Origin: a virus
Taxonomy: Duplodnaviria > Caudoviricetes
Length of the DNA: 64,000 nucleotides
Reading direction: 5' to 3' (one strand)
Virus record (IMG/VR): IMGVR_UViG_3300031949_000003
Every line of letters begins with the position of its first letter. The first letter of the stretch is position 1. The notes under the pieces are model-generated. The model saw only the letters and a program-made list of their open reading frames with translations, was not told the origin of the DNA and searched no databases. Of this stretch, positions 46,158 to 48,668 are shown piece after piece. Made by a program: the position numbers and the translations under genes.

Positions 46158-46196
46158 ATCGCGATCGATTGCCTCCGCGATCGCGCGGATTGAAAC
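46158..46196 (+). repeat. solitary type I-C CRISPR-repeat-like hairpin, copy 1
   Basis: AT-CGCGATCG-attgcctccg-CGATCGCG-CGGATTGAAAC. Confidence 0.55.
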
Positions 46197-46215
46197 ACCC
46201 GAGCATGTCGCACTC

Positions 46216-46935
46216 ATGATAAGCCGCCCGAACGGTCGCTTCGATCGCCGCCGCCCCGACAAGGGACACCGCATCAACCACCGCATCCGTGCCCAGGAGG
46301 TGCGGGTCCTCTACGAGGGCGATCAGCTCGGCGTCATGCCGACGCACCAGGCGCTACGCGTCGCTGAGGACAAGGGCTTCGATCTCGTCGAGATCTCGCC
46401 GGGCGCGGCTCCGCCGGTGTGCCGGATCATGGACTACGGCAAGTTCAAGTACGAGGAAGCGAAGAAAAAGCAGCAGCAGCGCAAGAGCCAGACAACCTTC
46501 GAGACGAAGGAGATCAAGTTTCGGCCCAAGACCGACGAGCACGACATGGACTTCAAGGTGAAGCACATCCGTCGTTTCCTTGAAGAGGGCAACAAGGTCC
46601 GGCTCGCCGTCGTGTTTCGCGGACGCGAGATGGCGCATCCGCAGACGGGCAAGGCCGTCCTCGATCGCGTGGTAGATCGCTGCACGGACATCGCCTCGGT
46701 AGAAGTGACGCCGAACCTCGATGGGCGGCGCATGATCATGCTGGTCGCCCCCAAGCCAGGCGTCGTGCAGAAGGCGATCGCGCTCAAAAAGGCGCAGGCG
46801 CAAACGCAGATCGCCGCGCAGATCGCGACACGTGACGCGCGGTTCACGGATCCTCAAGACGAAGTGCTCGATGAGGACGCGATCAACGCGGACGTCGACA
46901 TCGACGAGACCGACGACGACGCGAACAGCGACTGA
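46216..46935 (+). CDS. infC: translation initiation factor IF-3 with acidic C-terminal tail
   Basis: INHRIRAQEVRV, DLVEIS, PPVCRIMDYGKFKYE, KEIKFRP and FRGRE motifs. Confidence 0.97.
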   Translation: MISRPNGRFDRRRPDKGHRINHRIRAQEVRVLYEGDQLGVMPTHQALRVAEDKGFDLVEISPGAAPPVCRIMDYGKFKYEEAKKKQQQRKSQTTFETKEIKFRPKTDEHDMDFKVKHIRRFLEEGNKVRLAVVFRGREMAHPQTGKAVLDRVVDRCTDIASVEVTPNLDGRRMIMLVAPKPGVVQKAIALKKAQAQTQIAAQIATRDARFTDPQDEVLDEDAINADVDIDETDDDANSD

Positions 46936-46937
46936 AC

Positions 46938-47351
46938 GTGCAGGTACGGCCTGACGAGATGGTCATGATCCGCAACACGAAAGCCGCTCAGAGGGAGCTA
47001 CTACGTGTGGCGCTCGTGCACCCTCCGTTTCCCATCGTGCTGCGCGTTCGGGACTTCCGCCGATCGCTGTTCGAGCTGGAAATGCTGATGACGGTGCCGG
47101 ACACGAACAGCGGGCGCTACATCTGCCAGACGCTCGTGTTCGAGTGTGCGCTTCCCGTCTCACGACACAAATTCATCCGCTTCGTTGAAACGGCGCTGCG
47201 CGAAGCGGTCATGCACGAACTCTACGAGAGCCTTCACGTAGATGGCAAACGAGTACGTGACCCGCATGAAAGCCGTGAGGCTGGACGCGCGTGGACCGTG
47301 GTCGAAGACATGAGATGCTTTACACGCGCGAGAACGCGCTCGCGGGCGTGA
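46938..47351 (+). CDS. hypothetical protein
   Basis: 137 aa, follows infC; HELYE..DPH motif. Confidence 0.6.
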   Translation: MQVRPDEMVMIRNTKAAQRELLRVALVHPPFPIVLRVRDFRRSLFELEMLMTVPDTNSGRYICQTLVFECALPVSRHKFIRFVETALREAVMHELYESLHVDGKRVRDPHESREAGRAWTVVEDMRCFTRARTRSRA

Positions 47352-47365
47352 CGATTGTCGATTCT

Positions 47366-47893
47366 TCACTCCTCGATAATCGCGCCAGCGCGCTCGGCCG
47401 CGGCGCGGCCCGCCTTCGTGAACGGGCCGACCGCGACCAGCTCAGGCGAGACCTCGGATCGGTACGCGTCGAACAGGACCTGCGACAGCCCGCGCCCGCG
47501 CGCGTCGGGATCGACCCAGATGTGGTGCACGTATGGTCGGCCGTACTCGACGGCGTAGGCGAGTCCGGCTAGCGGATCGGCCACGCCTCCGTTGGACAAA
47601 ACGATCAAGATCCGCCCCGCACGAGCCCCGCCGTAGTTCTTACCCGTCGTGAAGATCAAGTCCCAAGGTTCGGGCACGCCCACGAGCGAGATCTCGATCT
47701 GTTCGCGCCGCGTGATGCGCTCATCGATGAGCGCTTCGTGCACGCGCTCACGCGTCACGCGCTCCATGCCGCCGTTGCCGCCGTTGCCGCCGTTGCCGTT
47801 GCCTCGCGCCAGTGTCTCGTTGATCTCGCGATCGAGCTGTTTGGCCGGCGTCTTCTTCGCCGGAGCCGGTACCCGCGGCACGCGTTTCTTCAT
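47366..47893 (-). CDS. GNAT-family acetyltransferase with N-terminal KKTPAKQLDREINETL module
   Basis: VHHIWVDPDARGRGLSQVL acetyl-CoA-binding motif A. Confidence 0.8.
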   Translation of the reverse strand: MKKRVPRVPAPAKKTPAKQLDREINETLARGNGNGGNGGNGGMERVTRERVHEALIDERITRREQIEISLVGVPEPWDLIFTTGKNYGGARAGRILIVLSNGGVADPLAGLAYAVEYGRPYVHHIWVDPDARGRGLSQVLFDAYRSEVSPELVAVGPFTKAGRAAAERAGAIIEE

Positions 47894-48071
47894 TACGACA
47901 CCAGCACCAACTCGGATACCGGGAAGATCCACGGCCCACGGCCGAGCTGCTTGTGCCACTCGATCACGTACGCATCGGAGCCGACGATCCGCTCGACGGC
48001 AGCCGTGGCCCCGTCAGGGAGCATCACGATGGCTCCAGGCCGGATCGATTCATCTTCCTCGCGTGGCAGCT

Positions 48072-48560
48072 TCATGGCGTCTCTCCACTCATCGGCTCTT
48101 CACTCACCGGCTCTTCACTCACCGGCTCTTCACTCACCGGCTCTTCACTCACCGGCTCTTCACTCACCGGCTCTTCACTCGCCGGCGCCTCGTCGGCAAG
48201 AGCGTCAGCCATCGCCCGCTCGGCCAGCTCGGCGTGCACGTAGCGGGTCAACTCGCGCTCGATCGCACCGTCCGAGAGCGTCGCCGCCGCGAGGTCGCCC
48301 GTCGTGACGCCGAGCTTGTCCTGGATCACGGCGCACGCCGCGTCGACCGCGCGCTCGACGAGCGCCTCGATCGCGACCTCGCACGTCATGATCGCGGTCG
48401 GGCCGGCGTGCCCGTTGACGTTGACGCCGCGAAACGACCGCAGCGCGTTGTTCCACGTCGCACGGTTGATGAGGCCGCGCGTGTAGAGCACGTTGATCTG
48501 CGCCTCGGTAAGCGCGGCGCTCTCTTTCGTCTCTTTCGTCTCTTTCGTCTCTTCCTTCAT
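48072..48560 (-). CDS. hypothetical protein with KET and SEEPV repeats
   Basis: 162 aa, GGGAG SD. Confidence 0.65.
   Translation of the reverse strand: MKEETKETKETKESAALTEAQINVLYTRGLINRATWNNALRSFRGVNVNGHAGPTAIMTCEVAIEALVERAVDAACAVIQDKLGVTTGDLAAATLSDGAIERELTRYVHAELAERAMADALADEAPASEEPVSEEPVSEEPVSEEPVSEEPVSEEPMSGETP
48086..48186. repeat. 15-bp tandem repeat (ggctcttcactcacc), about 6-7 copies, coding SEEPV
   Basis: Directly visible, with no spacers. Confidence 0.95.
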
Positions 48561-48626
48561 GATCGTCTCCCTTCGCGCGAGTTGAACGCCCAGTGTTGCC
48601 TTTAAGTGCCATGAGCTAGGTTGCGC

Positions 48627-48668
48627 TTCGCGATCGCTATTCGCGATTGCGATTGCGCGGATTGAAAC
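48627..48668 (+). repeat. solitary type I-C CRISPR-repeat-like hairpin, copy 2
   Basis: TT-CGCGATCGC-tattcgcgatt-GCGATTGCG-CGGATTGAAAC. Confidence 0.55.

Follow-up and report, generated by a model that had tools for sequence, protein, structure and literature searches.

Solitary type I-C-like CRISPR repeat units in a probable huge phage and the DNA that adjoins them

The DNA analysed here, hereafter the window, is a 64-kb stretch of a 332,853-bp viral contig (IMG/VR record IMGVR_UViG_3300031949_000003; Caudoviricetes) and it carries two hairpin units, each resembling a single repeat of a type I-C CRISPR array. Both units are intergenic, 2.4 kb apart, and both proved to be exactly as quoted in an earlier note on this DNA, which had been made from the sequence alone. 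Copy 1 ends 19 nt upstream of the ATG (46216) of infC, the gene for translation initiation factor 3 (IF3), on the same strand; this placement, also claimed in the note, was confirmed by the recognition of domains IF3_N and IF3_C (Pfam). Copy 2 is flanked by genes 48072-48560 and 48675-49091, both on the minus strand, and the sequence that follows it is, as stated there, antisense to the 3' end of the second.

46158..46196, plus strand: copy 1, a solitary type I-C-like repeat, arranged as AT-CGCGATCG-loop-CGATCGCG-CGGATTGAAAC (full sequence ATCGCGATCGattgcctccgCGATCGCGCGGATTGAAAC)
48627..48668, plus strand: copy 2, a solitary type I-C-like repeat, arranged as TT-CGCGATCGC-loop-GCGATTGCG-CGGATTGAAAC (full sequence TTCGCGATCGCtattcgcgattGCGATTGCGCGGATTGAAAC), with one G.U pair
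46216..46935, plus strand: infC, phage-borne, encoding an IF3 of 239 aa (Pfam IF3_N, IF3_C), with homologues on huge-phage contigs and in Kofleriaceae

Within the window the 14-mer GCGCGGATTGAAAC occurs only at 46183-46196 and 48655-48668, on the plus strand in both cases; the 8-mer ATTGAAAC is likewise confined to them. The copies agree at 20 of 22 nt of the 3' side and over the 9-nt 5' arm. A shared 14-mer would be insufficient by itself in 64 kb, but to it are added this agreement between the copies and an architecture that as a whole equals a type I-C repeat. No tandem array was detected in the window, nor a second repeat near copy 1, and none of the 41 window open reading frames (ORFs) scanned against Pfam and/or PHROGs contained a Cas domain. 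The statement that array and cas genes are lacking therefore holds for the window, which is what the search covered; the remainder of the 333-kb contig could hold either. The motif GCGCGAGTTGAAC, 39 nt upstream of copy 2, is a possible degenerate repeat tail, and the 39 nt separating the two, read as a spacer, match none of the loci compared. A 5-bp target duplication (CCTTC) at copy 2 was considered and rejected, since the other copies described below give it no support.

Likeness to type I-C repeats and copies in related phages

The units share several features with the canonical type I-C repeat of X. citri, GTCGCGCCCTCACGGGCGCGTGGATTGAAAC (PMC9504256): the 5' end (N)TCGCG, the first and last four stem pairs (CGCG...CGCG), a hairpin that ends 11 nt before the end of the repeat, and the tail GGATTGAAAC after the first tail base. 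About 14 fixed positions of the units coincide with the I-C consensus. They differ from it in standing outside an array, in having A or T rather than G as the first base and C rather than T as the first base of the tail, in an inner stem that contains AT, and in a length of 35-42 nt, as against the 31-32 nt of X. citri I-C repeats (those of T. thermophilus HB27 have 37 nt). The tail GGATTGAAAC alone also terminates some I-B repeats, and we class the units as I-C rather than I-B because the position of the hairpin and the 5' end are those of type I-C. The earlier description of them as solitary type I-C look-alikes on a mobile element is upheld; the 5' end and the 11-nt tail geometry match published repeats.

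Two further copies were identified in related phages, giving four copies at four non-orthologous sites in three phages (the window and two others, L150 and L173). All four begin with ATCGC or TTCGC and end in CGGATTGAAAC, following the pattern NT-CGCG-stem-loop-stem-CGCG-(C)GGATTGAAAC. The third copy, ATCGCGATCGTtagccGCGATCGCGCGGATTGAAAC, is on L150, a 1.7-kb metagenome fragment with 74-85% DNA identity to 30592-31141 of the window; it lies within the homologue of a 3'-phosphoadenosine 5'-phosphosulphate (PAPS)-reductase-like gene (30367-31410), antisense to it, in a replacement by which 54 nt are gained without loss of frame. The same insertion is seen at the protein level in a second lineage, whose protein P0088 is 72% identical overall to P0097, and the unit-encoded residues are identical at 16 of 16 positions between the two proteins. 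The fourth, TTCGCGATCACattcGTGATTGCGCGGATTGAAAC, is on L173, a 264-kb contig with an IF3 82% identical to that of the window, where it stands in place of the interior of a gene of 80 aa; another relative, L170, has this gene intact. Copy 1 is in sense with infC; copy 2 and those of L150 and L173 are antisense to their surroundings.

Among relatives the units occur patchily. L169, the closest relative (IF3 88% identical), lacks copy 1, which amounts to ~50 nt inserted into the predicted infC leader, as do L170, L173 and L174; in L173, L178 and L183 nothing corresponding to copy 2 is present between the orthologous genes. On the evidence of these alignments, copy 1 is a recent insertion and, because it is missing from the nearest relative, not a conserved control element of infC. 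A candidate fifth copy in L178 (5170-5220, ..TCGCAGCTG-ctcgat-CAGCTG-AGGATTGAAAC) was rejected, its 11-mer with one mismatch being expected by chance and its fold being no better than those of shuffled sequences; the counts given here for junctions, folds and covariation take in the four copies only.

The stem has 8-9 bp and ends ...GCG|CGGATTGAAAC in every copy, and all 32 stem cells of the four-copy alignment are paired (32/32), with one compensatory pair (G-C to A-U in L173) and one pair that is G.U in two copies. Read in the unit sense every wobble is G.U, and the opposite strand would have an A.C mismatch there; the plus-strand folds are more stable than the minus-strand folds, which are no better than shuffles. 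The loops of 10-11 nt that the earlier note had measured in the window copies, and had described as longer than canonical, are due to small tandem duplications in the stem: copy 1 is a canonical 35-nt unit plus a 4-nt duplication of CGAT in the 5' arm, and copy 2 a canonical unit plus a 6-nt duplication of GCGATT in the 3' arm. Because of these duplications both copies have alternative registers with loops of 4-5 nt, and it is these that form the minimum-free-energy folds. The L150 and L173 copies have 4-5-nt loops, as real repeats do. We conclude that the four copies are real, solitary, CRISPR-derived units.

Similar units are not restricted to these phages. A scan of IMG/VR with GCGCGGATTGAAAC returned 119 loci, and solitary I-C-like units with this tail are evidently common on viral contigs, since in approximately 30 of the 119 one such hairpin stands alone, the surrounding 400 nt being free of another copy. 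Many of them, including L002, L017, L055, L056, L071, L101 and L116, precede a start codon of like orientation by 0-25 nt; in L017 and L185 one gene is preceded, at the same site, by units whose stems are entirely different. On the 15-kb viral contig L177 (IMGVR_UViG_3300009856_000355), ~1320-1930 is occupied by a genuine type I-C array. Its repeats, about ten in number, come in two variants, and GCGCGGATTGAAAC terminates one repeat. The IMG/VR scans for more members of the present family found none, L176 and L177 being unrelated I-C units or arrays, and a further family scan of IMG/VR gave no match with the GATTGAAAC tail downstream.

Sequences upstream and downstream of the units

Three segments lie upstream of the window copies.

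46096..46124, plus strand: promoter-like box of infC, TTGCCG-17 nt-TACAAC; the same box stands upstream of infC in L169, L170 and L173/L174
46143..46157, plus strand: 15 nt, CCGCGCCAACCTGTA, inserted together with copy 1 (from alignment with the unit-free L169); not related to the leader-like segment that the other copies have
48575..48626, plus strand: leader-like segment of the copy-2 cassette (segment plus repeat), beginning with GCGCGAGTTGAAC, the possible degenerate repeat tail

Copy 1 has no leader-like segment and is found instead downstream of the infC box, which takes the form TTGCCG/TTGCAA-17 nt-TACAAC/TACAAA across the relatives and is not called by a strict consensus scan. Judged by its position, this box would transcribe copy 1 within the infC leader. 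The segment before copy 2 contains TTGCCT (48596-48601), a 15-nt spacer and TAGGTT (48617-48622). Approximately 50 nt upstream of the repeat are shared between copy 2 and the L150 copy, in which TTGCCT-15 nt-TAGGTT corresponds to TTGTAT-18 nt-TAGTCT; from boxes so placed, transcripts would begin at or near the repeat's first base. The motif TGAGCTAG (48612-48619 in the copy-2 segment) stands 8-10 nt before the repeat in copy 2, L150 and L173 and, in the window and related loci, is confined to these places. It contains CTAG, a tetranucleotide that is strongly depleted in the window as a whole (43 observed, compared to 211 expected from base composition). A sigma-70 and terminator scan around copies 1 and 2 reported nothing at the units themselves.

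The sequences after the four units are mutually unrelated and consist of phage DNA. TTC is the protospacer-adjacent motif (PAM) of type I-C systems (PMC10989782) and has a background frequency of 0.014 here; at each site we read, in the unit-free allele of a sibling phage, the 3 nt that precede the DNA which follows the repeat. The features concerned are these.

46197..46231, plus strand: native DNA after copy 1 (infC leader and start), putative guide part, preceded by TTC in L169
30896..30933, plus strand: unit-free allele of the L150 site, with TCTTCGAGCGTGG... after TTC (30896-30898); it falls within gene 30367-31410 (PAPS-reductase-like, minus strand)
48572..48574, plus strand: TTC ending the left flank of the copy-2 cassette, homologous to a sibling TTC directly before TCAGTGCC
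48669..48703, plus strand: DNA after copy 2, putative guide part, antisense to the 3' end of gene 48675-49091

At the site of copy 1, L169 reads GAGGATTTC|ACCCGAGCATGT, with TTC exact and the next 12 nt being the 12 nt that follow the repeat in the window. At the L150 site the window, L163, L165, L166 and L167 all read cagTTC|TC(C/T)TCGAGCG, again with TTC exact; the L150 flank differs from L163 at positions 6, 14, 28 and 30 only, so that the seed of a guide would be intact. The copy-2 cassette (48575-48668) starts directly after CCCTTC, and from +7 the DNA after copy 2 is identical over 27 nt to the sibling L178, where it is preceded by TTC. The motif is strictly present at two of the four sites, and at three when the reconstructed copy 2 is counted, for which the chance probabilities are P(>=2/4) ~1e-3 and P(3/4) ~1e-5. 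What is new about these units is their position: the repeats abut native DNA that is TTC-preceded in unit-free siblings. Such geometry points to a junction of the repeat-spacer type, either as a guide or as the scar of an escape from CRISPR immunity.

Guide, decoy or scar

The reading that we tentatively favour, as a candidate which may well be displaced, is that each unit is a captured cassette of leader plus repeat that removes the PAM of its site and turns the native flank into a guide against sibling phages. In origin, a spacer of a CRISPR array, of host or phage, would have recombined with the matching protospacer of the phage and carried the upstream repeat, with or without its leader, into the phage genome; Medvedeva et al. 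discuss a possible gain of spacers by phage mini-arrays through recombination with host arrays (PMC6858448). Alternatively, a leader-repeat module of the phage's own may have spread by the same route. The repeat would thereby be joined to native DNA in the repeat|spacer geometry of an array, with ..GAAAC in place of ..TTC, and because the PAM is removed the carrier allele would not be targetable at this site; the authors of PMC10989782 deliberately removed a PAM by inserting DNA between TTC and the target. Transcription of the cassette would give an RNA that Cas5c could cut after the hairpin, with a 5' end expected at C|GGAUUGAAAC, leaving the 11-nt handle CGGAUUGAAAC fused to about 35 nt of native sequence. 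This one-guide CRISPR RNA (crRNA), which would have to load without a 3' repeat, might then lead the I-C Cascade and Cas3 to siblings that keep TTC, amounting to superinfection exclusion, and the cassette would possibly be copied during the ensuing repair.

Several observations weigh against this reading. The sample comprises four copies only. The TTC of copy 2 is known solely by reconstruction from its own left flank, and 6 nt (AAACCT) with no sibling counterpart seen stand between copy 2 and the sequence shared with siblings, because of which a copy-2 guide would not match the siblings seen. At the L173 site the only sibling allele, that of the distant L170, has TTG, one synonymous change from TTC. 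In two other groups of IMG/VR phages every sibling found keeps the unit in place, leaving no unit-free allele to be read, and scans of genomes and metagenomes with GCGATYGCGCGGATTGAAAC returned neither an array nor cas genes associated with this repeat, the matches apart from L150 being due to chance or coding sequence. The covariation is weak, with 160 of 500 shuffles reaching the same level (n=4 sequences); the small stem duplications of both window copies could mean decay; and a crRNA made from one repeat, with none downstream, has an undefined 3' end.

It is possible, though on our estimate rather unlikely, that the units instead act, as the earlier note had suggested, as RNA anti-CRISPRs (Racrs), whose RNAs, as small RNAs or parts of mRNAs, bind the host's I-C Cas5c and Cas7 and divert them from real crRNAs, the flank being irrelevant. 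RacrIC1, a type I-C solitary unit, inhibits I-C immunity and shares its transcript with a protein gene (PMC10651486), an arrangement that copy 1 and infC would repeat. The invariant tail, stem base and 5' TCG, together with loops that are free to vary, would suit a mimic that binds protein, and a promoter-like segment lies directly upstream. From a decoy one would not expect the junction TTC of the unit-free alleles, nor the scattering of sites and the insertion within a gene, and no known acr or aca gene was recognised beside the units. It is because of the junction geometry that the captured PAM-removing cassette is preferred to the decoy; decoy action could coexist with a role as guide.

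We consider it doubtful that the units are functionless scars of escape, in which recombination with an array swapped the PAM for a repeat, the phage escaped the spacer and the repeat has been drifting since. The junctions would have the same geometry as under the favoured cassette, and the tandem duplications in a stem arm of both window copies and the patchy occurrence among relatives are in keeping with such drift. Against it stand the fully paired stem of all copies, with every wobble a G.U in the unit sense, the invariant tail, the identity of all 16 unit-encoded residues of the in-gene copy between lineages that are 72% identical overall, and the leader-like segment kept in three copies; a pure scar is less likely because stem, tail and leader-like part have been kept.

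Origins unrelated to CRISPR are highly improbable, whether the units are taken for a phage promoter, a minus-strand terminator, an operator, or a mobile promoter-stem-loop cassette such as PeSL of T4-type phages. In their favour, the arms are palindromes of the CGATCG type, common in this GC-rich DNA, and the cassette moves and has a promoter-like part; they leave unexplained the agreement of about 14 fixed positions with the I-C consensus, a hairpin ending exactly 11 nt from the end, and the TTC junctions. The earlier note had itself named two such alternatives, TTGAAA as a -35 box and the hairpins as minus-strand terminators, and both fail: TTGAAA is not followed at 16-18 nt by a -10 box, neither strand has a T-run behind the hairpin, and minus-strand folds are no better than shuffles. 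Least credible is the note's control site, at which the host's Cas5c would cut the infC leader and tune the phage IF3 (and, at copy 2, an antisense RNA likewise): copy 1 does lie in the predicted leader in sense, 19 nt before the ATG, in a position that many solitary I-C-like units of IMG/VR share, but it is recent and absent from the closest and all other relatives examined, which keep the promoter-like box and the leader, and the other three copies are antisense to their surroundings.

An extension of the favoured cassette, unlikely in our view, would make it a natural CRISPR-based homing element that resembles a gene drive. The handle and flank would guide Cascade-Cas3 to cut the cassette-free allele of a co-infecting sibling, repair from the cassette-bearing genome would copy the cassette in, and new sites would be reached through acquisition of a spacer by the module, followed by recombination with the protospacer that it matches.

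The units can be compared with three known systems. Solitary repeat units (SRUs) and Racrs, including RacrIC1 (Camara-Wilpert et al. 2023, PMC10651486), are also single repeat look-alikes of phages, including ones of type I-C, with no cas genes nearby, with a promoter upstream or co-transcription with a protein gene, and with hairpin and tail kept. The present units differ in being far from any repeat compared, with stems of the CGCGATCG type and loops of up to 11 nt, and in being placed, differently in each phage and once within a gene, where a PAM meets a protospacer of the genome that carries them; a decoy role is for them putative. An SRU is defined (Faure 2019; SRUFinder, Camara-Wilpert 2023) as lying on a virus or plasmid, between genes and without a full or partial repeat within 100 bp. 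The genome here is huge-phage-like and both window copies are intergenic, copy 1 with no repeat nearby and copy 2 with its possible degenerate tail 39 nt upstream. The SRUFinder rule of 90% identity and coverage would probably miss these units, as is suggested by the lack of any array with this 3' half in the genome and metagenome collections scanned.

Virus-borne mini-CRISPR arrays (Medvedeva et al. 2019, PMC6858448) likewise lack cas genes and have a leader-like promoter and a repeat, their guide matches close relatives, the carrier locus is altered against targeting, and their targets adjoin the array. The flanks of the units similarly match siblings that bear TTC at a position where the carrier has ..AAC, for copy 2 only by reconstruction. 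They depart from the repeat-spacer-repeat arrangement of mini-arrays, having one full repeat (with a leader-like segment in copy 2 and L150) and the carrier's adjacent DNA as 'spacer'; self-protection would come from the repeat replacing the PAM, and the probable host is a bacterium, with a putative type I-C system, rather than one of the Sulfolobales. Cracr RNAs (Liu et al., bioRxiv 10.1101/2024.10.29.618823) come from phages, contain a CRISPR repeat part and are loaded into Cas proteins of the host, as the unit RNAs putatively would be; the pseudo-spacer of a Cracr is aimed at promoters of host cas or toxin genes, whereas the flanks here are unrelated stretches of phage DNA.

Lone CRISPR repeats of phages are currently taken as decoys or left unexplained. 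If many of them stand at PAM|protospacer junctions, they would be records of recombination between phages and CRISPR arrays, and they might also be the smallest possible guide genes in conflicts between phages, one repeat with the phage's own DNA as its spacer. Such units would then be better sought by their geometry against sibling genomes than by 90% identity to catalogued repeats, and they would offer a simple and testable model of how huge phages of poorly known soil bacteria exploit the type I-C systems of their hosts.

Phage and host context

The IF3 gene is the basis for placing the window. The contig on which it is recorded has 332,853 bp, relatives of 70-90% identity come from contigs of 264-502 kb, and the nearest cellular homologues, at ~77% identity, are in metagenome-assembled genomes of Kofleriaceae (Myxococcota); the phage protein has an ATG start and an acidic tail. 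Judged by this one gene, the window belongs to a huge phage whose host is probably a myxobacterium, in agreement with the myxobacterial link drawn in the earlier note.

The window has a GC content of 64% and encodes ~100 mostly small genes, among which a C5 methylase, collagen-like proteins, a DnaJ, a sugar epimerase, a radical-SAM protein and a phage zinc finger were recognised; scans of the window detected no tRNA genes and no Rfam families. The PAPS-reductase-like gene that corresponds to the L150 site is one of three paralogues (phrog_424) in 64 kb, all on the minus strand (30367-31410, 37531-38889 and 49637-50923), and the family has hundreds of metagenomic relatives, most of them without annotation. 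The gene upstream of copy 2 (48072-48560, minus strand) contains seven tandem copies of a 15-nt sequence (48078-48206), which give VSEEP-like pentapeptide repeats at the C-terminus of its product; its homologues in relatives align over residues 14-109 only.

Related phages carry further genes of note. In L178 a 428-aa OrfB_IS605 protein (8382-9668, minus strand) adjoins infC, and among TnpB/Cas12f-like genes of the related huge phages one in L163 (17288-19225, minus strand) encodes 645 aa with a weak match to Cas12f1-like_TNB. A protein like Sigma54_activat/Mg_chelatase is encoded in L173 (11278-12486) and L183 (18443-19663).

The window contains other repeats as well. Intergenic repeats of ~35 nt with palindromes of the GGGT-N8-ACCC type, families D16 and D17 of the window repeat search, are located at 35331-35367, 39793-39829, 51159-51207, 52734-52768, 55215-55249 and 60002-60087. 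A direct repeat of 136 nt (85% identical; 2089-2224 and 10214-10349) flanks an 8.1-kb block of genes that are mostly on the opposite strand.

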